Source: a virus | Length of the DNA stretch: 64,000 bases | Virus record (IMG/VR): IMGVR_UViG_3300017766_005733 | Location: 1-64,000 of that record | Strand: one strand, 5' to 3' | In this document: one piece after another, positions 30,734 through 54,415 of the stretch | How positions within the stretch are numbered: position 1 is the first letter of the stretch | Layout of the letters: each line of letters opens with the position of its first letter | The notes under the pieces: model-generated | Databases searched by the model: none | The model's input: only the letters and a program-made list of their open reading frames with translations | Told to the model about the DNA's origin: nothing | Made by a program: the position numbers and the translations under genes

Positions 30734-32569
30734 TCAGTGCCCCGTCGGGTTTCTCGACGACAGCGGGTGGCCTGCATGCCCCAGAATCGGCTTTGCGTTG
30801 CGGTCGGCGACGCCGGTCACCATGCCCGCCCGCGCCTGAATCCACGACACCGACCCGTCGCCATGCTGCACCTTGATCTTACCCACGCGGCGGCGATCGC
30901 TGCCGGGGCCACCCTGCAGCATAGTGCCCGGCGGCAGATTCAGGTGGTGACGCGGGCCGCGAGTCGCCATCTCCTCTTTCTCCATCGGGATCTCATCCTT
31001 CAGGGCATAGGCATATTGCCCGAAGCGACCGTCCATGGGCCCGGAGGGGTTGGCGTGCAACTCTGAGGCCACTGGCTTGTAGTCCATGCCATGCTTCGCC
31101 GCGACCTTGGCATGAGTCGCCGACGCCGAGGTGCTGTGGAGGCCGCCAAAGACGTGAGAGATACCCAACGCATTCTTGCCATGCGCCATCAGTGACTCAT
31201 AGGCCGCGGCGCCGAGCCCCTTACCCGCATGCCCCTTTTCGACCTCAGCGACATCGACCTCCAGCCCCTTCTCGGGGTGGTGGGTAGCGAGGACGCTGCC
31301 AACGGGCTGGCCGTTGTGGTGAATGCGCGCCGCCAGCTGGTCACCGCTCCCCAGAACGTGCAGGGAGTAGCCAGCCGCTCGATGCTCAGGGCTCAGAACG
31401 TGGCTGTAGTCGTGATTGGAGTCCCAGACCGGCGTGGGAGTGGGAATGGGCTTGCCAACCGGCACGTCGGCCAGCTTCTTCTCCAGAGGCATGCAGGCCT
31501 CCAGATCCGAGTAGTAGCTGGGCGATTCCTTGAGGTGGGCGAAGGCGATTTTGGCGATCTCCTTGGCGTCGGTGCTGACGTCGGCGTGCTCGCGCTCGTG
31601 CGTCACGCCCTTCTTCCACTCCTCAAACGGGATCTTGTCGAGATCCACCTTGAGTTCGTCCGCCAGCTGCTGAGCCTCGGCATCCGAGACGCCGTCCATG
31701 ACGTCGACCTCGGACTTCTTGACATCCACCGACGGCATGGCGCGCGCCAAGGCGATGACGCTCTGGATCAGGGCCTCGACCGACGCATAGGCATCGGGAG
31801 CCGCGGCCTTCAGCTGCCCCAGCATCGGCGCCTGCTGCCGGACCTGCTGCAGCACCTCGGCGACCTTCTTCTTTGTCGCCGTCAGATCCTGAGTCGCCTT
31901 GCCCTCACCCTGCTGCTTCTGTTCGTCGGCCTTACCGGCGACCTCGTGCAGGCTGTCGATGAGATCGGCGGCGTGCGTCATCTCGGGTGGCGGCGGGACA
32001 TTGGAGCGATCGAGCGCCTGCGAGCGCGCCGCCTCGCCTTCGCTGTGCTCGCTGGCTTCTTGAGCCGGTGACGCGGGAGCGGCGGCCGGCGGGGAGCGAG
32101 AGAAACCGCCGAAACCGGCATGGGTGCCGGGGTTCTCTGCGATCGCCTTCTTCAGGCCCTTGTCTTCGTTCTCGATCTGGGCGAGACCGGCGTCGATCTC
32201 TTGGCTCCAGAGCACCGGCGCGTCGCGACCCCGCTTCGCCGCATACTCACGAGCCCGCAGCGCTTTCTCGATGCTGGAGCCGATGCCGACGGCCACGGCG
32301 CTTTCCCCCAGCGTCTCCTTGAAGCGCTGGCGCTGGCGCACGACCTGAGGCAGGCCCCGCGGGGGAACGGAGACGACGCCTTCGGTGCCAGAAAGCACAA
32401 CGACGGCGCCGCCAAGGCCCTGAGCCCAGAGCAGCCACGAGTCCTGAGTCGCCTTCTGCACCTGCTGATGCAGACGCTGCAGGCCCTCAGAATGCGAGGC
32501 CGCCACCATCGGCGCCATGCGATGGCCCATGTGGCACTGCCAAGCAACGTACAGCTTCTGCTGGTTCAT
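30734..32569 (-). CDS. Polyprotein: degenerate mCpol/GGDEF-like + DUF5661-like + GNAT + C-terminal module
   Basis: GG.VV.LSGTEG / VGIG motifs; KGVTHEREH...KIAFAHLKESPSYY; HAGKGLG acetyl-CoA loop; linkers GLKKA, DVKKSE, PLEKK, ALKDE. Confidence 0.75.
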   Translation of the reverse strand: MNQQKLYVAWQCHMGHRMAPMVAASHSEGLQRLHQQVQKATQDSWLLWAQGLGGAVVVLSGTEGVVSVPPRGLPQVVRQRQRFKETLGESAVAVGIGSSIEKALRAREYAAKRGRDAPVLWSQEIDAGLAQIENEDKGLKKAIAENPGTHAGFGGFSRSPPAAAPASPAQEASEHSEGEAARSQALDRSNVPPPPEMTHAADLIDSLHEVAGKADEQKQQGEGKATQDLTATKKKVAEVLQQVRQQAPMLGQLKAAAPDAYASVEALIQSVIALARAMPSVDVKKSEVDVMDGVSDAEAQQLADELKVDLDKIPFEEWKKGVTHEREHADVSTDAKEIAKIAFAHLKESPSYYSDLEACMPLEKKLADVPVGKPIPTPTPVWDSNHDYSHVLSPEHRAAGYSLHVLGSGDQLAARIHHNGQPVGSVLATHHPEKGLEVDVAEVEKGHAGKGLGAAAYESLMAHGKNALGISHVFGGLHSTSASATHAKVAAKHGMDYKPVASELHANPSGPMDGRFGQYAYALKDEIPMEKEEMATRGPRHHLNLPPGTMLQGGPGSDRRRVGKIKVQHGDGSVSWIQARAGMVTGVADRNAKPILGHAGHPLSSRNPTGH

Positions 32570-32603: not shown

Positions 32604-33839
32604 TCAGCGCTTCAGCACCTGATCGGGATGCGTCAAGCCCATCTTCGCGCCAGCCTGATCGACGAGCCCCAAGGCGGTCTCAAGTGGCACCTTCTGGGCC
32701 GAGGGCACGAAGCCTTCGTCAGAGGGCTCAGTGAACTTACCCGTCACCGCGCGATGAACGGCATCGTGCATCACCGTGTTCAGTTCCTTGTGGAAGACTT
32801 CATCGGGGACGTGCAGCCCGATCTGCTCCGACAACTCGCGCTGCTTGTGTGCCGCCAGCCACTCCCAATGCACCGCCCGCTTGGCCTCGCGCATGCTGCG
32901 CTGAACCCCCAGCTTGCCAATGCGTCGGCCCTCGCCGTAGATTTTGTTGAGTTCCGGATACACCAAGGCGTGGGAAAGTTCATGGATCTGACGCCACGCA
33001 TCCGTGTAGTCACGATCACCAAAATCACCACCCGACGACGGCGTGGGGTCGTACACCATCAGGTGCTTCGTGTTGTAGTTGCGGTTGGCGAGGTCGGGTT
33101 TGCCGTACTGGCCACCGGCGTAGTAGGTCTGAAAGCCGTGCTGAGCCACAAGATCACGAACCGCCGGCAGCTTGCCGCGGTAGTCGTAGTGAAACAGGTC
33201 GCTCTTGGTCCCCGGATGAATGTCGCCGTAGGGCTTGGCGTAGTGGGCGTACGTCGAAACGCCGACACCCGCCGCCTGCTCGTTGGCTGGCTTCGGGGGT
33301 GCGTCCATGTGCGGGTGCGCGCCCGGCTTCGGCGGCGCCGGGGGATTGTCGGCCTTCGCCAGCCCCGCCATGTGCATGCGCGTGTGGCCGTCATGCCACT
33401 CGTAGGCGTGGGGGTGCGGGTAGCGTCCCCGCGGGGCCTCTGACTTCGTCAGGGCCTGCTCCTGCGGCAGATGGCCGTCAGCGCCATGGCCACGGAAGCG
33501 ATAGACGCCCTTCTGGGCCTGCAGGCGCTGGGTGACTTCCGGCGGCACGGGGCCAATGGGCTCGATACCCAGAGCCTTGAGGTGCTGCGAGTACAGAGCG
33601 CCGTGGCGCTGGGCCTCTTCGATGGCGCCCGCGGCCTTGGCGGTCTTGGCGCCCATCAGGTGATGGGCGGCGGCGTTCAGGTGCTGGTCACGGACGTACT
33701 CGCCATGGGCCTGCTCTTCGGCGGCCTCGCGCGTCAGGCCGCGGCCGAACTCCAAAACCGCCGCCCGATGATCGAGTTCAGCGGCGTGACCGCCGTCCAT
33801 GATACGACGCCCCTGCCACATCCCATCATTCTTTGCCAT
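32604..33839 (-). CDS. Polyprotein with C-terminal HExxH metallopeptidase-like domain
   Basis: IHELSHAL and a downstream HWEW; linkers ALTKSE and GLAKAD; start probably MAKNDG at 33839. Confidence 0.7.
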   Translation of the reverse strand: MAKNDGMWQGRRIMDGGHAAELDHRAAVLEFGRGLTREAAEEQAHGEYVRDQHLNAAAHHLMGAKTAKAAGAIEEAQRHGALYSQHLKALGIEPIGPVPPEVTQRLQAQKGVYRFRGHGADGHLPQEQALTKSEAPRGRYPHPHAYEWHDGHTRMHMAGLAKADNPPAPPKPGAHPHMDAPPKPANEQAAGVGVSTYAHYAKPYGDIHPGTKSDLFHYDYRGKLPAVRDLVAQHGFQTYYAGGQYGKPDLANRNYNTKHLMVYDPTPSSGGDFGDRDYTDAWRQIHELSHALVYPELNKIYGEGRRIGKLGVQRSMREAKRAVHWEWLAAHKQRELSEQIGLHVPDEVFHKELNTVMHDAVHRAVTGKFTEPSDEGFVPSAQKVPLETALGLVDQAGAKMGLTHPDQVLKR

Positions 33840-35283
33840 GATTTTGTCCCCGATAGACGGTGTCCAAGAAAGCGAAGATGGCGTCTTCCTTCCACTTGCC
33901 GCCAAAGGACAGCAGGTAGCTGGACTCCTTCTTCTCCAACTTCACGTCATTCGCCAGATCCCGGAAGCAGTAGCAGGCCTGAAACAGACCACCAGCCGAC
34001 AGCTGATGACCGTCACAGACGCCGCAGGCCGCCGTCAGCTGCTTCTCAGAGAGACGCAGCGACGGCAGCTTCATGGTAGCCTTGGGGGGCGGCGGCGGCT
34101 TGCGACCGCGCAGCTTCGGCGGCTGCACCTGCTGTCGACTCGGGGCATCGGGCTGAAGGGGGCCGGCCTGCTGCGTGGGTTTGTGCGCGGGCCCCGGCAT
34201 CTCAGCCGAGCCCTTTCCCGCCTTCTCCAGATCCGAGTGCAGCTGGTTGAAGTCGAAGTCGTGGGTGAAGATGCGGCCGTCGGGCAGGATCGTGTAGTAG
34301 TCCTCGGGCTTCTCGGCGTGCCACTTCGTGCCCTGACCCGGATGATGCTTACCGGTGTTCTCGCCGTTGACCATCAGCATCTTGTGATGCAGGCCATCGG
34401 AGTGAATCACGGATTCCTGCCCCAGATCACGAGCCAGCCCCTCGATCATCTTCGGGTTCTTGGGGTTGTAGACGATCAGGGAGTTCTCGGGGCGACCGTA
34501 GCTACCGATGGTGGGGTGAGCGTCTTCGCCGGCGTCGCGCAGGTACTGGACCGCCTGCTGGTTGCTGAGGTCCTTCGTCTTCGGGAAGAGGGGATTCTCG
34601 GCCGACATCAGGGTGTGGGGTGGCAGGGACTGCTCAGCCTTCTGCAGATCGAAGCCGACAAGTGACCGAACGGCATCCACCATCTTCTTTTCAAGAGTGG
34701 GGTAGCGGCGATCGGTCTCCATCGCCTGCAGCGTCAGCGACTTGTGGCCACCGGAAAGCGTCGCCTTGCCAACCTGCTGCCCCAAGCTGTTGACGGCATA
34801 CAGCAGCGTGAGTGGCGCCGGGCCGCTGACGTCGTATTCGTGCTCAAACGTGAACTCAGAGCGCTCAGACGCCATCTTGCGCAACGCCGCATGGGCGACG
34901 CGGGCGCCGACGAGGGCGTCAACGCTCTTTCCAAGGCGATACAGGTCGGCGTCCGACACGACCTCGGGCACGCGGCTGCGATCAAGGCCCATGACGACGC
35001 CAAGGGCCGCGGCGACGTGGAGCAGGGAGGCAGTGTCAAAGGAGTAGTCGACGTCGCCCAGCGTCATCGCGCCATGAAAGCCGGTGTCAGACTTCTGCAG
35101 CACCAGACGTCCGCCGACCCCCGGAATCTCGCCATCGTAGCCATGGCCGGCGAGGGCCAGCCAAGAATATAGGGCTCGTGGCACCATGGCGTTGTCAAGA
35201 TGCGGAAGGCGCTCCGCGGCCTTGCGAAGCGCCTTGGCGCCTTCAGGGCCGACGAGGGCCGTCAGGATCTGGTGTCGATTCAT
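33826..35283 (-). CDS. Polyprotein containing a T3 SAMase-like (SAM lyase) domain and a C-terminal Cys cluster
   Basis: LMSAENP / GSYGRPENS / LARDLGQESVI / YYTILPDGR, bracketed by DLQKAE and DLEKAG; CGVC..CYC at the C-terminus. Confidence 0.7.
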   Translation of the reverse strand: MNRHQILTALVGPEGAKALRKAAERLPHLDNAMVPRALYSWLALAGHGYDGEIPGVGGRLVLQKSDTGFHGAMTLGDVDYSFDTASLLHVAAALGVVMGLDRSRVPEVVSDADLYRLGKSVDALVGARVAHAALRKMASERSEFTFEHEYDVSGPAPLTLLYAVNSLGQQVGKATLSGGHKSLTLQAMETDRRYPTLEKKMVDAVRSLVGFDLQKAEQSLPPHTLMSAENPLFPKTKDLSNQQAVQYLRDAGEDAHPTIGSYGRPENSLIVYNPKNPKMIEGLARDLGQESVIHSDGLHHKMLMVNGENTGKHHPGQGTKWHAEKPEDYYTILPDGRIFTHDFDFNQLHSDLEKAGKGSAEMPGPAHKPTQQAGPLQPDAPSRQQVQPPKLRGRKPPPPPKATMKLPSLRLSEKQLTAACGVCDGHQLSAGGLFQACYCFRDLANDVKLEKKESSYLLSFGGKWKEDAIFAFLDTVYRGQNHGKE

Positions 35284-36528: not shown

Positions 36529-38580
36529 TCAGACGCCGGCCCAGAGGCCATTGACGAAGCCACCGAGGTCGCCGCCGGCTTCTTTGATCTGGCGCAGACG
36601 CATGATTTCAGGTCGAGGATCGATGTCAAAGGTCCTCAGAGCCTCGGCCATCTTCTCTTCCGAGAGAGACGCCAGCCAAGACTTCATGCGAATGGCAACG
36701 GACGCCGGCAAATCCGGCATCAGCGCCAGCTTCTGCTTCGGCGCAAGGGTGTTGAAGGTCTCACCCTGCGGCGTCATGAAGCGAAGGTAGAAGGGCGTGA
36801 AAGATTCCTGATCGTGGGCGGGATCGAAGTGGATGCCGGCGAAGGCCGATCCATGATCAATCAAATGGATCTCGCCCTGCGGATTCATGAGCATGTTGTG
36901 GCCATGCCGATCGCCGTTTCCCGCCACCCAGTCAAGGACCGACCACTGCCAAAGGCGGCCGCGGAGGCGGTAGGACTCCATGGCCGACAGCACCCGCCCC
37001 GGATCCTGTTCTCGGATGTCGATCAGAGGCTTGAACTCTTCTGGCAGGAAGCTGATGGCGGCGTAGAGTTTGTCGTCGACCTTGACCCACTCAGTGCGCG
37101 CGAGGTCGCCCGCAAGCCCCCAAGAGCGCGCAAGCTGCCAGAAGGCGCCTTCACGGGCACTCGGCGGCGCCGGATCGTCTTGGATGCCCTTGATGGGGCC
37201 GGCGCGGCCACTGCCCGGCTTCATGTACCAAGTACCGGCGGGGGTGTCGATGAAGAAGGAGCCAGCGCTGTGGCGACCATCGAGATGCGCTGGACGCGCA
37301 GAGAAGACATTGTCAGTCAGCAGCTTGGCGACGTCTTCGCCGCTGGCGTGCATGGCCTCGATCTTCGACCTCGGCGTCACAGGCAGACTGCTCTTGGCCT
37401 CCGCCTTCGTCAAAGACTCCGACTTCACCAGCGGCATCATCTCAACCGCCGCCTTCAGGATGCCTCGGTTCTCTGCGGTGTCGGGCCAGTTGATGGCAGC
37501 CAAGGCCGTGGCCACGGGATCGGCGTCGTTGAGCCACGCCAGATGCCGCAGGCTCAACAGTGCCTCTTCGTCGTCACGGGCCTTCTCGCCCGTCAGCGAC
37601 AGCGCCGCGCGCCAATGTGCATAGACGCCGGGAGGCAACGGCAACAGGAAGTCGCGGGCAACCTCCGACTTGTCAAGGCGAGCCGTCAACAGGCGGTCGC
37701 GCAGTTCCTCGGAGATGCGAGGCGGCAGGCTACGCATCATCGCCAGATGCCGCAGCCCCTCGCCGTCATGGAACGCGGCGTCCATCCACTGCTCAGCGTC
37801 TTCCTCCGTCAACGGCGCCGACAGCGGCACGCGCTCCCACGCCCCCTGCGGCAGCACCAGTTGCTCCCAGAACTGACGCCAGACGTCTTCGGGCATCAGC
37901 GCCTGCGCATCAGGGGAAGCAGAGGCGATGAACAGCAACAGCGGATTGTCCTGCGCCGGCAAGTCCGCCGGCGAGCGCTGCGCCAGCTGACGGTAGATCG
38001 TGGGGATGAAGTCAAGGGGCACAGCGGGCATCAAGGCATCGAGCAGATGCTGGCCGGCTTCAGGTGACTCAATGGCGAGTCGCTTCAAAAGCGCATCGCG
38101 GCCCTCTTTCGTGCGCAGCTGCTGGGCATTGTGCTCCGTAGCCGCGGGGTGGCCGACGATGTCGAGAAGGCGCTCCATCTTGACGTGACGCACTACGTCA
38201 CACCACGCCTTGCCGTCGTACAGCTGGTGAACGATATGGGGCGCCGGCAGATCATCGATGACGCGATCGGCGATGGCCTGCGAGACGTGGCGGGGGCCAA
38301 ACCCCGGCATCGTGGTAGCCAGTGCCCGCTCTCTTGCGTCATCGGCGGCCAGAGCCCGGTAGGCGTCGCGCTCTTCTTCGGGCGCTGGCTGGGAGGGAAC
38401 CTCGGCCGATGCCTTGTGGTTGAGGAAGAACTCGTGTGCCGTGGCGCGGATGGCGTTAGACGCCGCGGCGTTGCCGAGGGCATCGACATTGGCGATGGCG
38501 GCGGCGATCTGGTCGCGGGTGGCGCTGGGGCTCAGGATCAGCCTCTCAGCGGCCTTCAGTGTTGCGATGACGTTGCTCAT
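36529..38580 (-). CDS. Helical N-terminal region plus PI3/PI4-kinase/HipA-like kinase
   Basis: YMKP, REGAFWQLA, GNGDRHGHN and LIDHGSAF motifs following the linker LVKSESLTKAE. Confidence 0.85.
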   Translation of the reverse strand: MSNVIATLKAAERLILSPSATRDQIAAAIANVDALGNAAASNAIRATAHEFFLNHKASAEVPSQPAPEEERDAYRALAADDARERALATTMPGFGPRHVSQAIADRVIDDLPAPHIVHQLYDGKAWCDVVRHVKMERLLDIVGHPAATEHNAQQLRTKEGRDALLKRLAIESPEAGQHLLDALMPAVPLDFIPTIYRQLAQRSPADLPAQDNPLLLFIASASPDAQALMPEDVWRQFWEQLVLPQGAWERVPLSAPLTEEDAEQWMDAAFHDGEGLRHLAMMRSLPPRISEELRDRLLTARLDKSEVARDFLLPLPPGVYAHWRAALSLTGEKARDDEEALLSLRHLAWLNDADPVATALAAINWPDTAENRGILKAAVEMMPLVKSESLTKAEAKSSLPVTPRSKIEAMHASGEDVAKLLTDNVFSARPAHLDGRHSAGSFFIDTPAGTWYMKPGSGRAGPIKGIQDDPAPPSAREGAFWQLARSWGLAGDLARTEWVKVDDKLYAAISFLPEEFKPLIDIREQDPGRVLSAMESYRLRGRLWQWSVLDWVAGNGDRHGHNMLMNPQGEIHLIDHGSAFAGIHFDPAHDQESFTPFYLRFMTPQGETFNTLAPKQKLALMPDLPASVAIRMKSWLASLSEEKMAEALRTFDIDPRPEIMRLRQIKEAGGDLGGFVNGLWAGV

Positions 38581-41500
38581 GGTTCACCGTAGGACGCCGC
38601 GATGGCTTTGCCCTTCTGATACTCTTTCTGCGCCGTCTTCAGGTATTCGTCAAGATGTTTCGACGTGCCGTCGGAGATCAGCCAGTCTTTGAGGTTGTCG
38701 TGCAGCGACTCATAGCCCTTGTTCCAGCCCATGGCCGACTTGGGCTCCATGCCGTTGTTGATCATGATCAACGAGATCAGGTTGCCGAGACGCGCGTCTT
38801 CGACGCCGCCGCCGTGCGAAGGACTGCGCTTGGCCAACAGGGCGTGGTTGACCACGGCGTTGTTGAGGCGTTCGTTGTCGCCGGCGATCTCGCGACGATG
38901 AGCGAACCCCACAAGGCGAGCGAACTGCGCGCAGTTGTGGGTGTAGGCCATAGGCGTCTTGGCGTCCACCTCGCCGTCGTTCGTGAAGTGGAAGAACTGC
39001 TTGTCTTCTCGACGCTTCTGATGTTCTTCGGGCGTCGAGGCCGCCGGCATAAGATGATCGAAGGCGATGTCGTGGGAGTAGTGACGGGCGGGGATCTCCG
39101 TGGAGGCCTCTTCCATTGCCGCCTGTGGCCCGAGCCCCTTGCCGCGCCCCTCGTAGTCGTGGTCGCGATGCGAGACGCTGTGAAACAGTTCGTGCATCAC
39201 CACCGCCCATGAATCATGATGGGCCTCAGGGTTGAAGGCCGCGGTTCCGCCAAGGGATTCCATGAACTGGCCGGCGTGAGTCTCATGTACCCGGACGCCA
39301 CCACCATTTTTGGTCCCGTAATCGCCGAGGACGCCGGGGGGCAGCTGCTGGCTGGTGGCCCTGACAACCGACGTCAGGGGCAGCGAGTTGCCGCCTTCGT
39401 TGATGCCAGTGACGTGAGCCAGACCCCGACGCAGGCGCTGCAGATGAGGTGCGTTCTGGCCGTCATCAAAGGCCGCCCCCCACTTGTTCAGCGTCTCGCC
39501 TCGCACCTGCCCAAGAGCCTTGCTACGCAAGTCCCCCGGCGCCGCGGCCGCAGCCCGCATGGCCTTGTTGTGGGCCGCGTAGATGTCACTTGGCTGATGC
39601 GGGAACGAGAAGTGCTCGTGCTTGGGCACGAACGACGGGTCGATCTTCGGCGGCGGCCGATTCACGAAGTCCATCTTCTTCAGGCGCTCAGCTGCGGCGC
39701 CAGCGTGCGCGGACTCCTGCCAGAACTTGTCCTGACCGTAGGCGCGCACCACACTCACCGGCTGCTTCGCGAGATGCGTCGGGTCTTTGCTCTTCAGCGG
39801 CTTCCAGAACTCGTGGTTGCCCGTGGGCTCGCCGACGGCCTTCTCGGCCTTCAGCAGATACGAGTACGGGCCGGCGCGTTCGTCGTAGTCCTGTCCCGTG
39901 GTCACATGTGACTTGTACTCGGGCTCGTAGCCGAGGCCGTGCTTTGCCGCCAACTGCATGTGGGTACGAGAAGCGGCCGTGGAATGCTCTTCGCCGGCGA
40001 CGCTGCGCAGCCGCAAGTGATTCTTTGCGTGCGACAGCAGGGCCTCATACATCGCCACGCCCAGCCGCTGCTTCCTCAGACCTCGGTGCAGGAAGGTGTT
40101 GGTGACGTTGAGCGTCTTCTTGTCGACGCGACCAGTGACTGTACCCACCTGCTTGCCCTCGACGTTGTAGAGTCGGGCCGTGGGCATAGGGTCGCCGGTT
40201 TCATCCGGAACATCGCTGACGCGCAGCGACAGCCCCTGACTTCGATGCTCAGGCGTCAAGACGTGGTTGTAGTCGAAGCTGTTGGCACCGACCTTCTGCC
40301 CCACGGGAATGTCCTTGAGCGCCATCTTGCGCAGGAACGATTCGCGGTATGGGCCGTAGCTATCAAGGGCCTCTTTGGCGCTGGGCTCGTGATCGATGTC
40401 GCCGGCGACAGAGTAGAGTCTCGTCATCGGGCGACCGCTGAAGTCCTTCTCCTCGATGAAGCGCTTGTTGGGACTGTCTAGTGCCTCGTCGAGGCTTGCG
40501 ATTGGAAAGCCATTCAGCTTCGCCGATGCCACGGGGTTTTCGTTCCACGGCTCTGATGTCTGCGCGTGGTGCTGCTCTGGCGTCTCGGGGGCACCCTTGG
40601 CGCCAACGACGCCGGGCATCGCAAGGATCTTGTCCCAGACCTTGTTGGCCGTCGGCGAAACCGACTTGTCGCTTCGCATCTTTCCGTGATACCGCAGCAT
40701 GCGCTGATACAGCAGGGTGCCGTATCCGGAGCCTTGAGCGCTGCCATGGGTTGCTGTTTCGCCGTGCTCGACGACGCCATTGCTGTCGACGCTGGCCGCC
40801 GAGGAGGAAACAGGGAACCCAAAAGGCTCCTTGTCGTAAGACAGCATGTGCATCACGCTGTATCCGCCGTGGTCGTATGGTGTGTCCTTGACGACATGGT
40901 GGTACAGGGGCTTCTCGCGGCTGCCGTGGTCTTCCCCAGCCGGGCGCTGGCTGTGAGGCACCCGATACGTCTCGATGCTCTGCAGGCCACCCTCGTACTG
41001 GCTGGTGCGATGAGGCCTCATGCCATGCTGCACGGCCTCGTAGGCCATCTTGTGCAGGTAGTCAGACTTCTTGAGGGTGCCGGGCTTGATCTTGACCTTC
41101 GCCGGCGCCTTCATGCCCTGCATCGTCTTCATGTACTCTTTGACGTAACCCGACTTGGCGATCTGCTGAGGCGTGGCGTTGATGGCCGCACCGCGACCCC
41201 AGCGCCAGCCGTAGGCCGTGCGCTCAGGCGTCTTCAGCTTGTCCTGCAGCCACTTCCAGTGATCGGAGGCGACCTCGTTGTAGAACTTGTGGTCGCTCTG
41301 GAACTTGGCGGTGAAAGAGTCCTGATCCAATCCCGGATACTTCGCCTGCAGGCCTTTGCTGTTCTGGTACTGGTCGTAGCCCGACACGGGCTTGAAGCCA
41401 ACGGCGCCGAAGGCCGTGTGGAAGGGCCCCTTGGAATGCGCGGCGTGCTTGATGTTCTTGCCAAACGACGACTCCAGCTGCGCCACCGGATGCAGACCCG

Positions 41501-43052
41501 GATGCAGGCCCTCGGGCGTCCATTGACTCGACTCTGCAGCGGGAGCGGGAGCAGAAATGGGAGCAGCGACAGCCGGCGCAACGACAGGCGCCAGCTTGGC
41601 CTCAGGCGCACGGCCATGGAGCCCCAAGCCCAGCCCACCGAGGCCGATGGCGGCCGCCAGCGCCTTCTCTTTCAGGCCCTTTTCAAGGTGCTGGTGGGTG
41701 TCACCGAGACGCAGCGTCGGCATGGCATCCGCCACACGCTGCACGTCCTCTTCCGTGGCCGGGCTTTCGTAGTCGGGCAGGCGATGATGATGGATGTCAA
41801 CAACGGCAGTCGGCTGATGGGTGTGGATCTGCTCGTGATTGAGCCAGCTACCCAGCCAGTCGCCGGCTGCGTGGTCGCCATAGGCGTCGTGGATCGTGTC
41901 GCCAATGCGGGCGCCGACGTGATGGATGTCGTCACCCATCTGGATCCCCACCAGCCTCGCCTCAGGGTGCTTCTTCTGGATGGCCCTTGCCAGAAGGCTG
42001 CAGCCGCCGGCGTGCCACGTCGATCCCGCGGCGGCCGTCTGGTCAAGGACGCCAAAACTCTCGTCGGAGCCACACCACTCGGCGATTCCAGAGCCCTTTG
42101 CGAGGGCCTCAGACTTCATGATGTTAGAGTGAAGCGACGGATTGGCGTTGAAAACACTCTTGATCTGATGGGGGTAGAAAGCAACCCAAGTCCCATCGCC
42201 GAAGTCGACTCCGTCGTGGCCCTTGTTCCTCAGCCCATCGAAGAAGGCGGCCTGCCACTTGGCATAGTTGGGGGCCATCCGGTGACTTTCAACGTCTTGC
42301 GGCTGAAAGACATAGGGGTTCTTGATCGACAAATGGACGGGCATGACGCGAGGGGCGTTGTTGCGATCAACGATCTGACCGCCGGAGAACACTGGTCCGC
42401 GGCTGTCGTTGTCGACGGCATACATCGACGCTTCTTTCGGATCATTCGTAAACCAAGCGCCCCGCTTGCCGATCTTGAAAGAAGAAAAGTCGACGTCTTT
42501 TGACGTCCCATGGTAGAGTTTCAGGGGCTTGCCTTGCGGATCCTTGACGTGCGACCCCGAAAACCACTCTTGGAACTCGGGGGTGTCGTGCTTCGCCAGT
42601 CCGTCGGCTTGCGATTCCCCATCCTGCATCCCCAGCAGCTGCAGCGTCACGTTGCGCGGCGAATGCAGATTGTCGGCGATCTCCTTCGGCAGCCCCTCAC
42701 TGACATCGACCCAGCGCCACTCACTGCACTCGTTGTCGGGGTCTTCTTCCGTCGTGACGCGCGGCTTTTCTTCGTCGTGGAACGTCACCTGATAGGCATG
42801 GACAAGGATCTTGCGGCCACGGCTTTCGACGACGTCAGAGCCGAGGGATTCCAGCACCTCGTTCCCCGTCTTCAGGCCCGTCTCTTCCCGGAGTTCACGG
42901 ACGGCGCCTTCGTAGGCCTCTTCGCCGTCCTCCAAATGGCCGCCGGGCAGCGTCCAACGACCGTTGTCGCGCCGCCGCCCCCAAAGCATGTCACCGGCGC
43001 CATCAAAGACGGCAATAGAAGCAACCTCGACGGCATCCTTGGTATCAGCCAT
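38577..43052 (-). CDS. Polyvalent protein: Nudix + ART-like + papain-like + TM/lysozyme-like + GNAT + GNAT + HExxH peptidase
   Basis: GGHLEDGEEAYEGAVRELREETG; LYHGT..WFT..YA..L.IKNP..GHDG..QIKS; GGC..LA..HHV..DAYG; LESS; QGSGYG; RKQRLG; MHELFH..EEASTE. Confidence 0.85.
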   Translation of the reverse strand: MADTKDAVEVASIAVFDGAGDMLWGRRRDNGRWTLPGGHLEDGEEAYEGAVRELREETGLKTGNEVLESLGSDVVESRGRKILVHAYQVTFHDEEKPRVTTEEDPDNECSEWRWVDVSEGLPKEIADNLHSPRNVTLQLLGMQDGESQADGLAKHDTPEFQEWFSGSHVKDPQGKPLKLYHGTSKDVDFSSFKIGKRGAWFTNDPKEASMYAVDNDSRGPVFSGGQIVDRNNAPRVMPVHLSIKNPYVFQPQDVESHRMAPNYAKWQAAFFDGLRNKGHDGVDFGDGTWVAFYPHQIKSVFNANPSLHSNIMKSEALAKGSGIAEWCGSDESFGVLDQTAAAGSTWHAGGCSLLARAIQKKHPEARLVGIQMGDDIHHVGARIGDTIHDAYGDHAAGDWLGSWLNHEQIHTHQPTAVVDIHHHRLPDYESPATEEDVQRVADAMPTLRLGDTHQHLEKGLKEKALAAAIGLGGLGLGLHGRAPEAKLAPVVAPAVAAPISAPAPAAESSQWTPEGLHPGLHPVAQLESSFGKNIKHAAHSKGPFHTAFGAVGFKPVSGYDQYQNSKGLQAKYPGLDQDSFTAKFQSDHKFYNEVASDHWKWLQDKLKTPERTAYGWRWGRGAAINATPQQIAKSGYVKEYMKTMQGMKAPAKVKIKPGTLKKSDYLHKMAYEAVQHGMRPHRTSQYEGGLQSIETYRVPHSQRPAGEDHGSREKPLYHHVVKDTPYDHGGYSVMHMLSYDKEPFGFPVSSSAASVDSNGVVEHGETATHGSAQGSGYGTLLYQRMLRYHGKMRSDKSVSPTANKVWDKILAMPGVVGAKGAPETPEQHHAQTSEPWNENPVASAKLNGFPIASLDEALDSPNKRFIEEKDFSGRPMTRLYSVAGDIDHEPSAKEALDSYGPYRESFLRKMALKDIPVGQKVGANSFDYNHVLTPEHRSQGLSLRVSDVPDETGDPMPTARLYNVEGKQVGTVTGRVDKKTLNVTNTFLHRGLRKQRLGVAMYEALLSHAKNHLRLRSVAGEEHSTAASRTHMQLAAKHGLGYEPEYKSHVTTGQDYDERAGPYSYLLKAEKAVGEPTGNHEFWKPLKSKDPTHLAKQPVSVVRAYGQDKFWQESAHAGAAAERLKKMDFVNRPPPKIDPSFVPKHEHFSFPHQPSDIYAAHNKAMRAAAAAPGDLRSKALGQVRGETLNKWGAAFDDGQNAPHLQRLRRGLAHVTGINEGGNSLPLTSVVRATSQQLPPGVLGDYGTKNGGGVRVHETHAGQFMESLGGTAAFNPEAHHDSWAVVMHELFHSVSHRDHDYEGRGKGLGPQAAMEEASTEIPARHYSHDIAFDHLMPAASTPEEHQKRREDKQFFHFTNDGEVDAKTPMAYTHNCAQFARLVGFAHRREIAGDNERLNNAVVNHALLAKRSPSHGGGVEDARLGNLISLIMINNGMEPKSAMGWNKGYESLHDNLKDWLISDGTSKHLDEYLKTAQKEYQKGKAIAASYGEP

Positions 43053-43063
43053 GTCCTACCCCT

Positions 43064-43915
43064 TCACAGTGCGCCGACGACGATCTTCTTGCCGAAGAGG
43101 TTGCGCAGCTGACCCATCAACGTCTTCTTCTGCTCAGCCAGTTCCTGCATGCGCTGCTGGAAGAGGCTGGCGCCGGCAACTGACACCGACTGCGACAGAC
43201 CGTCAATACCAAGGCTGTGGCTGCCGACGAGCGCAAATGTGGGCGCGAGAAGGCTCAGGGTCTCGATGGCCGCGATGACGGCCACGAGTTCATTGACGAG
43301 CGTCGGCAGCTGACCATCGGGGAAGCCGGCCGTGTACTCGATCGTCCAGTAGGCCGGGATGCGACCCGTCATCGTCATGTGGTGCATCATCGCCAAGCCA
43401 TACGGCGAACCCGTGCCGAGGGCGGCGAAGGTGGCGCCGGTGTTGGCGGGCGACAGAGGCAGGATGTAGACCTGACCACGGGCAAGGTAGCCGGGCTCGA
43501 TCCACTGCGGCGGCACCGTCCAGACGTCAACGCCGTTGCTGTCCTGAATCGACAGCTTGTCGACGCTCGACGCCGGGCGATTCTCCAGACGGAAGAAGCC
43601 GTAGCTATCGAACTCCTGACGATCGAAGGCCTTGCGCTCGCGGAACTTCGTCGGCATCAGCGTCAGCCGCGTTTCGGTCTCCAGCACCATCACGGCGCGG
43701 CGGATGATGTCCTTCAGCTGCTCGTCGGTGATGCGCGGCGCCGGATCGTTCGATCGCGCCTGACGCCATGCGCTGTACAGCGGAATGCCCCAGAGTTTGC
43801 GCATGCGCAGCTGCTCAGGGGTCACCAACGGCTCAAGACGCTGCCACGCCGTCTCGATGGCGTTGGGCAGGTAAAGGTCTTTACCGATGGACTTGGAGTT
43901 GCCGTAGTCGGCCAT
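43064..43915 (-). CDS. Head-tail adaptor (neck) protein
   Basis: IEYTAGF...P and SHSLGIDGLSQSVS motifs typical of myophage adaptors. Confidence 0.75.
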   Translation of the reverse strand: MADYGNSKSIGKDLYLPNAIETAWQRLEPLVTPEQLRMRKLWGIPLYSAWRQARSNDPAPRITDEQLKDIIRRAVMVLETETRLTLMPTKFRERKAFDRQEFDSYGFFRLENRPASSVDKLSIQDSNGVDVWTVPPQWIEPGYLARGQVYILPLSPANTGATFAALGTGSPYGLAMMHHMTMTGRIPAYWTIEYTAGFPDGQLPTLVNELVAVIAAIETLSLLAPTFALVGSHSLGIDGLSQSVSVAGASLFQQRMQELAEQKKTLMGQLRNLFGKKIVVGAL

Positions 43916-47897: not shown

Positions 47898-48199
47898 TCC
47901 TCAGTGGTGTTGAAGGCCCAGACATGGTTGGTGGCGTACTCGACGATGAACGAAGGCGCTGGCCCGTACCAAGTCTGGCTGTGCTTGACGGCCAGAATCG
48001 CGGCCTCAAAGTCGGAGAACCCCATGCCCTCGGGCAGCGTCGGGGCATAGACAAAGAAGCGCGGAACGGTGCGAGCGAAGCGATCCATGCCAAAGGCGAC
48101 AACGGGCAGGGTCGGCCGGTCTGACTTTGGCAGAAGGACTTCTGCGTGAGTAATAGGAGCCATGCCCATTGGCGGAACCATCCAGTTCATGAACGTCAT
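47894..48199 (-). CDS. Hypothetical protein (MTFMNW...)
   Basis: ATGA coupling with the Hef-like gene stop. Confidence 0.55.
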   Translation of the reverse strand: MTFMNWMVPPMGMAPITHAEVLLPKSDRPTLPVVAFGMDRFARTVPRFFVYAPTLPEGMGFSDFEAAILAVKHSQTWYGPAPSFIVEYATNHVWAFNTTEE

Positions 48200-49605
48200 G
48201 AAGCGACGATAGCCGATGACGATGAAGGTGTCAAGTCCATCTCCCAGCGAACAAGACCGCAGTCCCAGATACGCGCATAGCCGCGAGCCGCCATCTCCTC
48301 GTGCTCCGTTACCTCGTCGCCCACCCCCAAGGCCGCCTTGCGAAACTTCGATCGATGCCAACGATGGCGATCTGATCCCTTTTTGATGTACCAGTATCCC
48401 GGTGGAAGAACCTCAGCCGCGATAAACCCTGAGCGCTCGTAAATGCCGCCACTAGACCAACGACGATCAGAGAAGGTGACGATGCGCGTGGGGCGCAGGA
48501 CGGCGATGGCGCCACTCAACAGCCGCTGAAGGCCACCGGCGACATGAAGTCGTTCCGTCAAAGCGTAGCGAGAGAGTTCCCAGACGCCATCGCCGCGATG
48601 ACGAAAACCAGCGACAGCCACCAGTTCGCCGCTATGCCTCAGCCCCCAACAACGAGTCTCGGCTCCCGCGGCCTGCAGGTGATGAGCGTCGAAGAACTCA
48701 GCCGCTGTCTTGATGTCGACCTCGGCCACCTCGCACTTCCGCGCTCCAACTCGCTGACCCGGCAAACCAGAAAGCGCCTGAAGGTAGGCGCAGCAAATGG
48801 CACGACGCTGAATCCACTCGTCGGAAAACACCGTCACCAGCCTTATGCCGAGGCGCTCACAGGCCTGCAGCTTCTCCAGATGCCGCCTACGAGCCTTCTC
48901 TGGCGTATGGATCTCGCTGTGATAATGAAGACCGCAGTATTCTATGGCCAAAGACAGGGACGGCACCCATATGTCAATCTCAAGCGGAGAAATGACGTGG
49001 CGCACGTTCTCAAAGACCTCCAACCCTGCTTGGCGAAGGAGATCGGCGATCTCCCCCTGAGCGTGGCTCTTCACACACCCACAAGAACGCACCTTCATGT
49101 ACAAGAAATCAAAAGAACGGACATGGAACAGTCTGCCGCAGTGACAGTGCAACTGCAGGCCATCACGTCCCAGCGGGATAGGGGCGTCTGCGTCTAGGTC
49201 ACACCGCATCCCCAGTCGCTGCGCCACGACATGGACGTCACGCCCCCGGTACTTGGTCCGGTCTTCTTCAGGAATGTCCCTCCAACGCCTTTTTGAAGCC
49301 TTGGATACTTCCGCTCGCAGCGTCTCGTCTCGCCATGCCGTTCGGACGGAGGCAGCACGGCGCTCTAAGACCTCTGGGGTAAGAGACTTTCGCATCGTCT
49401 CCCAAGCATCGGGATCCTTTGCGAGGCGGCCGGCTCGTGCATTTTCTTGCCTCTTGTCTGGGGGCAAGGAAAACCGGGCGCGAGTCTGGATGTTCTTGAT
49501 CTGTGAAACCGTGAGCCCAAGGCGTTGGGCGACGGCCTCGCGCGTCATGCCCTCGGCCCGCAACCTCACGACTTCGTCGACCAGATCCTGAGAGAAAGCC
49601 TTCAT
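48196..49605 (-). mobile_element. Hef-like free-standing homing endonuclease (HTH + Vsr/PD-(D/E)XK + GNAT-like C-terminus)
   Basis: N-terminal HTH; SCGC; LEIDIWVP..AIEYCGLHYH..FSDEW; GARKC; SDRRWSSG..Y; RIWDCG. Confidence 0.8.
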
Positions 49606-49650
49606 GCCACACCCCATTACCCCAGAGGCATAGCATAGATTCAACCGCGT

Positions 49651-49692
49651 AAAAAAAGCAAGATGGAGGCCGTTACCAGCCTCCATCTTGCT
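49651..49692 (-). terminator. Intrinsic terminator after the major capsid gene
   Basis: 14-bp stem AGCAAGATGGAGGC/GCCTCCATCTTGCT with a T-run on the minus strand. Confidence 0.85.
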
Positions 49693-51182: not shown

Positions 51183-52028
51183 TCACTTCAGCAGATGGGA
51201 CAACTTGCTCGCATCGACGTTGCCGCCGAGGAAGAAGTCGTTGATGAGTTCGCGATCGCTCTTGGTCAGCGACGCATCGCGGACCTTGGAGCGCAGCTTC
51301 GCGGCCATCTCCGACTTCGACAGCTTCGGCGCCACGGCGGCAGCCGCGGGCGTCAGCATGGTTTCGGCCTTGCGCATGGGCTTGGAGACGACGGCCTCAA
51401 AGGCGCCGATCACTCGCTCCAACATCTTGCCCTGCTCCTCAAGGCTCTTCTTCAGGGCGGCGACCTCGGTGGTCTCCGACTTCGCGATGGGCTTCATCTG
51501 CCCACCGTTGCCGTCGGCCTTCATCTCGCCCTTCATCGCCGGCGGCGGAGCCGCGGGAGCCGATGCCTCAGGGGCGCCGGCACCAGCAGCAGGACCACCA
51601 GCGCCCATGCCGCCACCCATCGCCGCAGCGAGGGCAGCCTGAGCCGCTTCCGCGTGCATCTTCAGTTCGTCAAGCGGCAGCTTGGCGTACTCAGACTGCA
51701 GCGCAGCCGGGTCCATGGCGCCACCAGCGTCGGGACCCTCGCCACCCTCGTCACCGGGGGCAGCCGGGTCGTCGGCCGGCGACGCGGAGGCCTCAGCGCC
51801 ATTGGCGCTTTCCTCCGACGGACCACCGTCGTCGTCTTCCGCGGCGGGGGCCGGGGCCGAAGCCTCGCCCGCGTCGTCGGCATCCATCTTCGACTTCTCG
51901 TCATCACCCGCGGCCTTGGCCAGCTTCTCAGCCCGGTCCTTCTCCGACTTCGCGATGTTGACGAGGACATTCTGGACATCGGCCAGAATGGCATCGATGT
52001 CGACGTTCGTGAGATCAGGGGTAGACAT
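51183..52028 (-). CDS. Probable scaffold protein
   Basis: Acidic low-complexity/coiled-coil protein just upstream of the MCP; many x-K-S-E motifs; AAGGAGG SD before the ATG at 52028. Confidence 0.75.
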   Translation of the reverse strand: MSTPDLTNVDIDAILADVQNVLVNIAKSEKDRAEKLAKAAGDDEKSKMDADDAGEASAPAPAAEDDDGGPSEESANGAEASASPADDPAAPGDEGGEGPDAGGAMDPAALQSEYAKLPLDELKMHAEAAQAALAAAMGGGMGAGGPAAGAGAPEASAPAAPPPAMKGEMKADGNGGQMKPIAKSETTEVAALKKSLEEQGKMLERVIGAFEAVVSKPMRKAETMLTPAAAAVAPKLSKSEMAAKLRSKVRDASLTKSDRELINDFFLGGNVDASKLSHLLK

Positions 52029-52067
52029 GGTGTAGTCCTCCTTGTTGAGTTTTGAGGAATACAACCA

Positions 52068-52980: not shown

Positions 52981-53175
52981 ATCGGATTTGGGCAGGTGTG
53001 GCGCCAGCCGCCGCTTGGCTTCGGCCACGAGTTCAAACAGGGGGCGATTGGCGTCCATGATGACCTCATGGTAGGGTGTGCCGATCAGTCGCACGCGCAC
53101 GCCCACCGTGCGATGACCGATGGCGATCTTGCCGTCTTCAGCCAGTGGCACCACGATATATTTGCCGTCAACCAT
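52942..53175 (-). CDS. Small hypothetical protein
   Basis: AAGGA SD; overlaps the stop of the GGDEF gene. Confidence 0.5.
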   Translation of the reverse strand: MVDGKYIVVPLAEDGKIAIGHRTVGVRVRLIGTPYHEVIMDANRPLFELVAEAKRRLAPHLPKSDLLTGFAVRDLTR

Positions 53176-54415
53176 TTTCCTTACCTCCCGGCGCCACGGT
53201 AGCGGGCTGCGGCGCGGGAGTCAAGGAGGAAGACATGGCTGGCTGCTTGAGCAGGGAGTGGAAGCGCAGGGGCTTGGTGGGCTGCACCATGCGCGCATCC
53301 ATGCCCGGATTCTGGGCAAGAGCCTCGGCGATTTCTGCCCTCTTGCCATCCTTCGCCATCAGCAGTGCATCGTCGGCGACCTTGGGGTTTTCGCCAAGGC
53401 CAACGCTGAAGCCCACCTTGTGGGTGCCGCCGACGTCTGGCAGCTTCGACAGGTTGTCGTGCAGCTGGCGCAAGACCATGTGCGCCTGCTCCGGCGTCTT
53501 CGTCCAGAAGTGGAACTCGTCGCCGCCAAACCGATGCGCCTTGGCGTTGTCGTGCCCCACCGTCTGATCGATGGCCGAACGCAGGGACTGCCCCAGAGAC
53601 TGGATGGCCTTGTCGCCTTCAGGGTGGCCATGGGCGTCGTTGATAGCCTTCATGCCGTCGCCGTCCAGCATCGCGTGGACGCCGGTCTGGGCTTCGGGGC
53701 TGGCCATGAAGTCGCGGTACGCTCGCTTGTTACCCAGCGACGGAATCATCTCGTCGTGGTAGAGTTCCTTGCGCAGGGCCTCGTAGTGGTCTTTGTGCAG
53801 GTGCCCGGCGTCAACCAGCGCCCTCAACTGCGAGAAGGTATCGTTCAGCGACGACTTCCGGAGAGGCGCAAAGGCTTCAAAAGCCTTCATCGCCGACTTC
53901 TTGAAGTCACCCAGATCCGGGGGCGTGACATAAGTGATCTTGGCTACGCCCTTCTTGGCGTTGTCCAGCATCACCTGCACATCGTCGCGCGAGACCTCTT
54001 TGCCGTCGAGAGTCAACCGGCCACTCTTCGCCTCCAGCACCCGCGGGACGCTGTAGCCCTCACGATGATAATGGAAGACGCCGTCGCGGGTCGGGGCTTG
54101 CGTGACTTCGCCGCCATCAGCGGCGTCTGAGTCACCGAAGACCTCGTTCTCCCAATCGTCGACCTGTGCCTGCTCGTTGGCCGGCTTCTTCTTGTCGACG
54201 AGGTAGTAGTGGCTGTTCATCAGCGACTCAATGCGGCTCTGGTGTCGCGCCAGAGGCTGCTCATCGAGGCCGTCAAGGATGCCTTCGTGGTCTTCCACGA
54301 CGTGGATAACGCCGTCGTGAAGGATGTACTTGCCGACAAGGCGCGGATGCACGCTCATCCGCTTGAAATCGGGATGAAGAGCGTAGACGAGATAGGTATC
54401 AAAAGTCGGCATCAT
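53168..54415 (-). CDS. GGDEF-domain (diguanylate cyclase-like) protein
   Basis: D...LGNKR, LDGDGMKAINDAHGHPEGD, RFGGDEF, SVG and ADDALLMAK motifs. Confidence 0.9.
   Translation of the reverse strand: MMPTFDTYLVYALHPDFKRMSVHPRLVGKYILHDGVIHVVEDHEGILDGLDEQPLARHQSRIESLMNSHYYLVDKKKPANEQAQVDDWENEVFGDSDAADGGEVTQAPTRDGVFHYHREGYSVPRVLEAKSGRLTLDGKEVSRDDVQVMLDNAKKGVAKITYVTPPDLGDFKKSAMKAFEAFAPLRKSSLNDTFSQLRALVDAGHLHKDHYEALRKELYHDEMIPSLGNKRAYRDFMASPEAQTGVHAMLDGDGMKAINDAHGHPEGDKAIQSLGQSLRSAIDQTVGHDNAKAHRFGGDEFHFWTKTPEQAHMVLRQLHDNLSKLPDVGGTHKVGFSVGLGENPKVADDALLMAKDGKRAEIAEALAQNPGMDARMVQPTKPLRFHSLLKQPAMSSSLTPAPQPATVAPGGKENG

Follow-up and report, generated by a model that had tools for sequence, protein, structure and literature searches.

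A seven-module polyvalent protein in a phage head-gene block, with a recurrent L-x-K linker as candidate protease site

Introduction

Why should a single phage gene encode seven different domains, and why should the same short peptide stand between them? This question was raised by a gene at positions 38577-43052 (minus strand) of a 64,000-nucleotide stretch of virus DNA (positions 1 to 64,000 of IMG/VR record IMGVR_UViG_3300017766_005733), which is referred to here as the window and which is the start of a 131,625-b linear virus record with an estimated completeness of ~80%. An earlier reading of the letters (the original prediction) had described a polyvalent protein of seven modules, separated by a linker motif and inserted among neck genes. 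We found that the gene is a single uninterrupted open reading frame (ORF) of 1491 aa, in which all seven modules were present in the proposed order and at the proposed coordinates, and every motif named for them could be located in the translation. The presence of NUDIX, ADP-ribosyltransferase (ART), SLT-fold, zincin-like and two GNAT domains in one ORF, together with its virion-gene context, also agreed with the description as a phage polyvalent protein.

Our analysis further pointed to the linkers as protease sites. We consider it probable, with considerable room for doubt, that the chain is a polyvalent polyprotein whose L-x-K sites are cleaved by the prohead protease of the phage and whose pieces are packaged and then ejected; the cleavage, the packaging and the identity of the protease are the steps that we infer.

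Modules, linkers and cassette shuffling

The modules and linkers are given below in their order along the chain. Structure models were made with AlphaFold2 (AF2), the predicted local distance difference test score (pLDDT) is quoted as their local confidence, and the linkers were taken from the motif list.

42600-43052, minus strand: module 1, NUDIX hydrolase, residues 1-151 (Pfam NUDIX, E 4.4e-20, over residues 10-124)
42588-42599, minus strand: linker 1, LAK-H, residues 152-155
42114-42590, minus strand: module 2, ART-PolyVal ADP-ribosyltransferase, residues 155-313 (Pfam PF18760, E 4.2e-16, over residues 171-305)
42093-42122, minus strand: linker 2, doubled, IMK-S EA LAK-G, residues 311-320
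41688-42095, minus strand: module 3, small Cys-His-Asp domain, residues 320-455 (GGC...HHV...IHD)
41676-41687, minus strand: linker 3, LEK-G, residues 456-459
41619-41663, minus strand: hydrophobic Ala/Gly/Leu helix, residues 464-478, directly after linker 3 and followed by a Pro/Ala-rich spacer
41097-41534, minus strand: module 4, lytic-transglycosylase (GH23/SLT-like) fold, residues 507-652 (AF2 pLDDT 87-98)
41046-41075, minus strand: linker 4, doubled, LKK-S DY LHK-M, residues 660-669
40335-41045, minus strand: module 5, divergent GNAT-like acetyltransferase, residues 670-906 (motif AQGSGYG)
40323-40334, minus strand: linker 5, LRK-M, residues 907-910 (doubled, LRKSEADLQKM, in relatives P0003 and P0005)
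39858-40325, minus strand: module 6, GNAT acetyltransferase, residues 910-1065 (Pfam Acetyltransf_1, E 4.9e-5, over residues 962-1017)
39846-39857, minus strand: linker 6, LLK-A, residues 1066-1069
39672-39848, minus strand: variable spacer, residues 1069-1123, ending in linker 7 (pLDDT below 50 over its first 47 residues)
within 39672-39848, minus strand: linker 7, LKK-M, residues 1124-1127
38580-39674, minus strand: module 7, gluzincin-like metallopeptidase, residues 1127-1491 (HELFH at residues 1287-1291, nucleotides 39180-39194)

First, the linker that had been proposed between the modules was found at every border as [LIMV]-x-K-[SAGMH] (residues 152, 311/317, 456, 660/666, 907, 1066 and 1124), doubled at two of them. 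In the AF2 models, pLDDT fell below 50 for most of residues 129-187 of the piece holding modules 3 and 4 and for residues 1-47 of the C-terminal piece. Folds running across the linkers, the result that would have spoken against separate modules, were looked for in these models, and none spanned the modelled borders.

Second, the motif marked the junctions of related proteins. An exhaustive HMMER search with residues 320-1491 returned 613 proteins at E <= 1e-3, of which 149 reached E <= 1e-30, and a set of 156 proteins was assembled from the best 150 of the 613 hits, the query protein, four closer relatives and the orthologue of Myxococcus phage Mx1, the nearest named phage. Junctions were counted in the 83 proteins in which mapped modules lay next to each other, a set that did not include the polyvalent protein itself and its three closest relatives. 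L.K[SAM] was present in 83 of 140 junction windows compared with 8 of 276 interior windows, and the looser form [LIMVF].K[SAGMH] in 110 and 39 of them, respectively. When residues were shuffled within the windows (500 shuffles), L.K[SAM] occurred 7.4 times on average and 17 times at most, against the 83 seen. The junction consensus was E/P at -3, L at -2, K at 0 and S/A/M next, followed by A/E. Two pairs of modules that always occurred together had no motif between them (X3-X4, 0/10; M5-X2, 0/4), so that each pair fits a single unit. Judged from these sequences, the borders delimit real units.

Third, the cassettes were found to move. The comparison of orthologs for module gain and loss, suggested together with the original prediction, was carried out and revealed cassettes lost and reordered: in the 156 proteins, the modules were arranged in 74 distinct ways (twelve module types mapped). 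The frequencies of the modules in this set, which are biased because the HMMER query contained SLT and GNAT but neither NUDIX nor ART, were as follows.

Transglycosylase module: 126 of 156 proteins
GNAT of the module-6 type: 97 of 156
NUDIX: 76 of 156, at the N-terminus in 56
ParB-like module: 34 of 156
ART: 12 of 156
Module 3: 6 of 156
Module 7: 6 of 156

A Pfam scan of 42 family members also detected PI3/PI4-kinase-like domains (9 proteins), YunG (2), and PBECR5 nuclease, ParB_N and HipA_2 (1 each). Losses could be followed most closely for the ART cassette. A 77%-identical IMG/VR relative lacked it precisely from linker to linker (in relative L002, exactly the stretch between linker 1 and the following linker), and it was absent from P0003. 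In P0005 (68% identical), it was cut down to its last ~30 residues (FGNGTW...HQIKSV) with intact flanking linkers; by its alignment, this remnant is a cassette caught in decay. The spacer ahead of module 7 was shorter in P0005 and P0115.

Selection acts on the motif as peptide: 32 distinct codon triples were used among 48 motif sites, with Leu encoded by CTG, CTC, CTT and TTG and Ser by TCT, TCG, TCC, AGC and AGT.

The motif in head proteins and a candidate protease

Third-position GC was used to call genes across the whole record (109 genes), and the L.K[SA] count of each protein was compared with shuffles of that protein. The head block, as the 17 genes of 32604-62367 (minus strand) are called below, held 27 motifs compared with 7.0 expected (P 7e-9). 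Without the polyvalent ORF the block still had 25 (5.85 expected), whereas the remaining 92 called genes had 21 (18.5 expected). In the polyvalent ORF alone, the looser form of the motif was seen 11 times compared with 5.8 expected. The proteins of the block with the motif were the following.

51183-52064, minus strand: scaffold-like protein, 4 L.K[SA] seen (7 in the loose form), 0.6 expected
60166-62367, minus strand: portal with sites at both ends, 3 seen, 0.35 expected
54419-59128, minus strand: 1569-aa chain, 7 seen, 1.9 expected; its N-terminal ~220 aa may be the prohead protease and would then act on the linkers in trans
33826-35283, minus strand: 485-aa protein, 5 seen, 0.62 expected; no Pfam or PHROG hit
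36529-38580, minus strand: 683-aa protein, the ORF next to the polyvalent one, 3 seen, 0.56 expected; PI3/PI4-kinase-like C-terminus (Pfam PI3_PI4_kinase, E 5.7e-7)

The motif also persisted in other phages. The scaffold-like proteins of four phages each had 5-7 sites despite sequence drift, and L-x-K-A at residues 12-15 of the capsid protein was kept in 4/4 phages. A second capsid-protein candidate, MLKS at residues 58-61, had been considered as a maturation site and was dropped, as it was not conserved in Mx1, L010 and L015.

The 1569-aa chain offered a candidate for the enzyme. Its homologue in Mx1 is annotated as 'putative prohead protease' in GenBank, and ESM Atlas clusters the N-terminal piece with Peptidase_S77/S80/S78 at 0.92-0.94. 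His51 and Ser134 were invariant in 5/5 sequences, and LWK-A stands at residue 218, directly behind the protease-like domain. The N-terminal domain of this chain would thus be the prohead protease, and this assignment is the weakest link in the mechanism considered below.

The rest of the 1569-aa chain contained ParB_N (residues 294-351), a PI3/PI4-kinase-like region (residues 1163-1209) and DUF6321 (residues 1452-1522). Its residues ~367-400 (MKKAMDAGMATGSPSSLMGGAALQREEL) resemble the N-terminus of the capsid protein from the predicted cut site onward. At 30734-32569 (minus strand), a 611-aa protein combined DUF5661 (E 2e-16) with a GNAT (Acetyltransf_1, E 4e-4), and this GNAT cross-matched the module-6 GNAT in phmmer maps of related loci. 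The 611-aa protein seems to be another chain of this type, the third.

Proposed mechanism and alternative explanations

We propose that the protein is a set of seven independently folding cassettes on one chain, joined by unstructured linkers with L-x-K and then S, A, M or G. The chain would be made late with the head proteins and taken into the prohead, where the prohead protease, itself the first bead of a second chain, would cut after the Lys of each linker. The same protease would trim the capsid protein and the portal and break up the scaffold. The freed enzymes would remain in the head until infection and then exit together with the DNA; the transglycosylase and the hydrophobic helix ahead of it would act on the envelope, and the other modules on host proteins and nucleotides. 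The activities put forward in the original prediction, namely that the set could hydrolyse defence nucleotides, modify host proteins and digest peptidoglycan locally at entry, are likewise putative. Since the same site bounds each cassette, cassettes could be gained, lost and reordered without harm, which is our proposed explanation for the many architectures seen in relatives. The position of the cut, the ejection and each of the substrates are likewise predictions.

The alternative closest to published ideas is that the chain cuts itself, with the module 7 gluzincin and/or module 3 releasing the other modules; release could precede packaging or follow injection. In favor of this are the invariant HExxH...E and zincin-like model of module 7 and the conserved Cys-His-Asp of module 3, and Iyer et al. 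(2017; PMC5512222) argue for autoproteolysis by embedded metallopeptidases (MPTases), citing the processing of P1 DdrB (for this source, PMC5694885 and PMC10052503, our statements refer throughout to the portions of text available). We nevertheless regard self-cutting as quite improbable. Modules 3 and 7 each occurred in just 6 of the 156 proteins, 135 of the 140 junctions lay in proteins having neither of them, and the Pfam MPTase-PolyVal model was not matched. No HExxH string at all was present in 58 of the 83 junction proteins. A protease acting in trans is more likely for this reason of distribution, and the sharing of the motif between the chain and the scaffold, portal and capsid proteins, which a peptidase of an effector chain would have no reason to cut, implies that a head protease would be the one acting.

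Even so, a number of points weigh against cleavage by a prohead protease at these sites. With regard to the motif, the strict form L.K[SA] was not enriched in the polyvalent ORF alone (2 seen, 1.15 expected), 30 of the 140 junctions lacked even the loose motif, and the junctions of related proteins are not independent, so that P values overstate the evidence although the effect size is still large; the query bias in the module frequencies belongs here as well. With regard to the enzyme, its identity rests on the GenBank label, the ESM Atlas leads below 0.95 and the conserved His and Ser. Pfam S77 and S78 had no match in the genome (nor had S80, but that model was silent on control genomes too), the isolated 220-aa piece matched nothing in Pfam, and a PDB profile search with the candidate found nothing relevant. 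The predicted P1 residue is Lys, whereas the cleavage motifs of T4, phiKZ and SPN3US have Glu (PMC5694885). The Mx1 paper is a genome announcement with nothing on the polyvalent protein and holds no proteomic or biochemical evidence (PMC10720576). Finally, N4 vRNAP, ArdC and TraC1 travel as full-length, uncut polypeptides (PMC5512222).

Some of these points would fit a chain that is never cut and that would be packaged, or would work in the cell, as one large multi-enzyme protein in which L-x-K-S/A is a favoured flexible-linker composition inherited with the cassettes: full-length transit has precedents, the strict motif is not enriched within the ORF, and cleavage is here a reading of sequence. 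We think this explanation unlikely, as the order L, x, K, small residue exceeded by far what linker composition gives in the shuffles described above, and the motif recurred in unrelated head proteins of four phages, for example at residues 12-15 of the capsid protein. It can also be argued that a chain of ~160 kDa with a membrane helix would be hard to thread through the tail tube. A third explanation takes the linkers as recombination joints at the DNA level, that is, as stretches of microhomology through which cassettes are exchanged and which serve no function in the protein. Although cassettes are exchanged exactly at the linkers, we give this explanation very little credence: codons vary freely at the motif sites, the peptide motif is kept in Mx1 at 55.5% GC (PMC10720576) compared with about 63% here, and it is also found in the non-modular scaffold and capsid proteins.

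The reading as a polyprotein cut by the prohead protease can be extended to a more general and more tentative one, which we would not yet favour but consider a real possibility. Any enzyme domain flanked by L-x-K|S/A/M may be a bead on the head-module polyproteins of Mx1-like myophages, as in a 'plug-and-play' cargo standard. A gp21-like protease with P1 switched from Glu to Lys, itself the first bead, would cut the beads out in the prohead for injection, and the shared site would let cassettes move between chains and phages, giving each phage its own counter-defence and take-over mix. The chains in this phage would be the 1491-aa, 1569-aa, 683-aa, 611-aa and 485-aa proteins.

Properties of the individual modules

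The identities predicted for the first two modules were strongly supported by the Pfam matches listed above. In module 1, the Nudix box GHLEDGEEAYEGAVRELREETGL was complete at residues 38-60 (G38-x5-E44-x7-R52-E53-L-x-E56-E57-x-G59-L60); the Nudix box consensus is GX5EX7REUXEEXGU. The nearest solved relatives of this module in a PDB phmmer search were NUDX1/MutT-type enzymes (best E 6.7e-9) and not ADP-ribose or signal-nucleotide hydrolases. Module 2 scored 60.4 bits against PF18760 (cut-off 31.2) and covered model positions 1-138 of 140, and its motifs YHGT, AWFT, GHDG and QIKS all lay within residues 155-313. The active site of ART-PolyVal (Tox-ART-HYD2 clade) consists of H on strand 1, Y on strand 2 and D on strand 5 (PMC5512222). 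The His (in YHGT) and Asp (in GHDG) of this H-Y-D site were conserved, and the strand-2 Tyr position was Trp (AWFT) here and in 4 other rows of a 12-row alignment, which was read by eye with strands not taken from a structure; the other rows covering that position mostly had Tyr.

Module 3 was the weakest-supported of the seven. Cys351, His378 and Asp389 were invariant in 4/4 aligned sequences, and the AF2 model (pLDDT about 60-82) showed a Cys-bearing helix followed by four strands with the His and the Asp; in the numbering of the piece, helix 27-42 held Cys32, strand 56-64 held His59, and strand 67-70 ended with Asp70. This much of the 'papain-like' prediction stood. The match itself did not appear: the leads were YunG-like and below threshold (Pfam Phage_YunG-like, E 0.0027, below cut-off; ESM Atlas, 0.86-0.87), a PDB profile search gave 0 hits, and no papain-like match was found, the fold-match lists of the joint piece of modules 3 and 4 being filled by matches of module 4. 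A YunG-like and possibly papain-like domain is a plausible lead. It should be read with the fact that the 27-row alignment used for the AF2 model of modules 3 and 4 included two distant module-3 rows whose second halves were misaligned onto module 4. A common family with the N-terminal Cys-His module of Mx1 was considered and dropped (hhalign 0.4%).

The hydrophobic helix ahead of module 4 was seen in the AF2 model at piece residues 139-151 with a disordered stretch after it, and relatives had comparable hydrophobic stretches ahead of the SLT module. Module 4 was invisible to Pfam, SLT models included, and to the PDB sequence profile. Its predicted SLT-like nature was borne out by fold comparison of the AF2 model: VIA-align gave Z 11.8 for MltC (root-mean-square deviation (rmsd) 2.4, 125 aligned), 11.3 for 5o2n, 10.4 for Cj0843, 9.9 for MltE, 9.9 for Slt70 and 9.6 for phiKZ gp144, each of the six spanning 121-128 residues at rmsd 2.4-3.1, and the top 25 Foldseek matches were lytic transglycosylases throughout, with weak E-values from 7.8e-3. 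Glu527, in the LES of LESS (residues 526-529), was invariant in 20/20 sequences, with the next Ser kept in 19/20, and it would be the equivalent of the catalytic Glu of Slt70 and MltE.

Both predicted GNATs were supported. Module 6 passed Acetyltransf_1 narrowly (24 bits, cut-off 20.7) and carried QRLGVA; the acetyl-CoA motif consensus of GNAT enzymes is Q/R-x-x-G-x-G/A. In its family, Acetyltransf_1 was matched in 23 of 42 members scanned, with a best E of 1.9e-21. Module 5 remained below the cut-off of the same Pfam model (E 0.19). Its profile, built from 13 homologues, matched the module-6 GNAT profile in hhalign at 93.8% (E 1.8e-7, 70 columns), spanning the acetyl-CoA motif QGSGYG; four control pairs each gave less than 1%.

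In module 7, EEATTE followed the second His of HELFH by 23 residues. The piece residues H219, E220, H223, E246 and E247 were invariant in 6/6 sequences, down to 30% identity, and one more His was also kept in 6/6. The AF2 model (pLDDT 72; predicted template modelling score 0.78) had a three-strand sheet (160-164, 175-178 and 184-188), then the HExxH helix (207-226, with H219-E-x-x-H223) and then the Glu helix (241-266, with E246/E247). The predicted zincin was moderately supported: the HExxH...EE was invariant and the model zincin-like, but the fold matches to gluzincins were only middling (Z 5-7.3). The best VIA-wide matches, obtained with no Foldseek pre-filter, were zinc metallopeptidases (F3, Z 7.3; LTA4H, 7.3), with several aminopeptidases N, DPP III, lugdulysin and thermolysin (5.1) among the others, and the top rows fell in peptidase families M1, M49, M30 and M4. 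Foldseek matched nothing in PDB or BFVD at E <= 0.001, and no Pfam peptidase family, the MPTase-PolyVal model included, was matched.

Genomic context

The polyvalent ORF is preceded by a ribosome-binding-site-like AAGGGG upstream of its start, its ATG follows the stop of the gene before it by 11 nt, and its own stop overlaps the ATG of the 683-aa ORF (ATGA). The portal, the capsid protein, the scaffold-like protein and an adaptor/neck homologue are on the same strand. The last of these is the gene directly upstream (43064-43915, minus strand), which matched the solved adaptor/neck protein 8q01_b over residues 56-278 (E 1e-8). Thus, the predicted placement among neck genes was correct for this neighbor, while the other neighbors carried no such assignment. 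PHROGs labels the same upstream protein as 'tail fiber protein' (phrog_772), and in view of the 8q01_b match this label is probably wrong for it.

A megablast search of the polyvalent ORF against GenBank phages gave no match. The gene order around the locus was the same as in Mx1, where a protease-like giant gene is followed by genes for a cyclase, the capsid protein and thymidylate synthase, by two small genes, and then by a 'NUDIX hydrolase' of 1479 aa and a 'kinase'. When IMG/VR was scanned with the transglycosylase profile, 13 loci were found on contigs of 11.7-170 kb, of which 12 were analyzed, since L003 was on the same contig as L002 and was dropped. The chain was placed after the same two small genes in 10/12 loci, and in 4/12 (L004, L005, L008 and L014) the counterpart of the kinase-like 683-aa protein was fused in frame to its C-terminus. 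At L006 the transglycosylase module was located inside the protease chain. At L011 and L012, on two viral contigs, the transglycosylase module was a free-standing ORF of 158-169 aa.

Two further genes of the region were observed. A GGDEF protein (53168-54415, minus strand; Pfam E 3.3e-11) is located between the protease chain and the scaffold and capsid genes, and its Mx1 counterpart is annotated as a nucleotide cyclase. An HNH/homing-endonuclease-like ORF (48196-49686, minus strand; PHROG E 7e-77) adjoins the capsid gene, where Mx1 has thymidylate synthase. This ORF may be a mobile insertion, because Mx1 goes directly from the capsid gene to thymidylate synthase.

Implications

If the linkers are protease sites, they would provide a readable rule for the enzymes brought into the cell by a large group of soil phages, and sequence alone would suffice to list this cargo, each chain being divided at L-x-K. 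Many candidate counter-defence enzymes would come to light in this way, including NUDIX, ART, GNAT, kinase, ParB-like and PBECR nuclease modules. It would also follow that a head protease of the T4 lineage has a reversed charge preference at P1, and that a natural scaffold exists for loading foreign proteins into phage heads. Should the more general cargo standard hold, it would be a DNA-phage equivalent of the polyprotein strategy of RNA viruses, with a defined site grammar. In either case, the general peptidase-release idea of Iyer et al. would become specific and testable in a culturable phage, Mx1, with a laboratory host.

Comparison with known systems

We found no paper on this family or motif in the literature searched; the architecture lists in the supplement of PMC5512222, which was outside the search, may hold members. 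The myxophage preprint 10.64898/2026.09.14.751636 contains none of the words polyvalent, NUDIX, polyprotein and ADP-ribosyl.

The closest named relative is the Mx1 protein WNM70333.1 ('NUDIX hydrolase', 1479 aa; OR576727.2), a positional orthologue that follows the same two upstream genes. The two proteins have NUDIX, ART, SLT-like and both GNAT modules in common at 29-47% identity, with the same linker motif and a different order. Modules 3 and 7 are missing from the Mx1 protein, which instead has a different Cys-His module at its N-terminus, additional sequence behind module 5, a ParB-like module and a tail at the C-terminus.

In T7, a GH23-type transglycosylase forms the N-terminus of gp16, a single large structural protein of the internal core, and is carried in the virion and ejected into the envelope. 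Unlike in gp16, the transglycosylase here is a cassette of 150 aa preceded by a hydrophobic helix of its own. T7 core chains were among the weaker matches of module 4 (9jyy_I and 7eyb_I by Foldseek; 6yt5_G, Z 5.3, by VIA-align), and the cellular enzymes MltC, Slt and MltE were far better.

The T4 protease gp21 breaks the scaffold down and trims the capsid protein, and it also cuts the packaged and injected ART Alt, at ITE-6 and LTE-619 (PMC5694885). An ART and a short motif with a hydrophobic P3 and a charged P1 are shared with Alt and the T4 internal proteins, with the difference that cleavage is here predicted from sequence. The T4 cargo is encoded by separate genes with a capsid-targeting peptide and has Glu at P1, whereas the cargo here is beads on one chain and P1 would be Lys. 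The ejection and inner-body proteins of phiKZ-like phages (the SPN3US gp245 substrates) are comparable in that many proteins inside the head, several of them multiply cut, are processed at a three-residue motif by a self-cleaving protease related to T4 gp21 (PMC10052503, PMC5694885). The SPN3US enzyme cuts after A-x-E (PMC10052503, PMC5694885), and the phiKZ motif is S/A/G-x-E (PMC5694885). In contrast with the present chain, the phiKZ-like cargo is mostly non-enzymatic or vRNAP, the motif is A/S/G-x-E, and no cassette shuffling is described in the available text of these two sources.

The chain falls within the polyvalent proteins of Iyer et al. (2017), for which delivery with the DNA and release by embedded MPTases were predicted and an analogy with RNA-virus polyproteins was drawn (PMC5512222). 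Both here and there, many unrelated enzyme domains are joined in one late, virion-linked polypeptide, and the published repertoire includes ART-PolyVal, GNAT beside ART, lysozyme-type domains, zincin peptidases, kinases, ParB-like domains and GGDEF. NUDIX is mentioned once in the available text of that paper and is the commonest N-terminal module here. Unlike in some polyvalent proteins, there is no MuF or portal fusion in this chain, and its zincin is without an MPTase-PolyVal match. The main difference lies in the junctions: that text defines no shared junction motif and does not contain the word 'linker', whereas here the junction site L-x-K-[S/A/M] is common to the chain and to the scaffold, portal and capsid proteins. 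The polyvalent class itself is already known, and what would be new in this locus is that the borders of its cassettes carry sites for a trans-acting protease.

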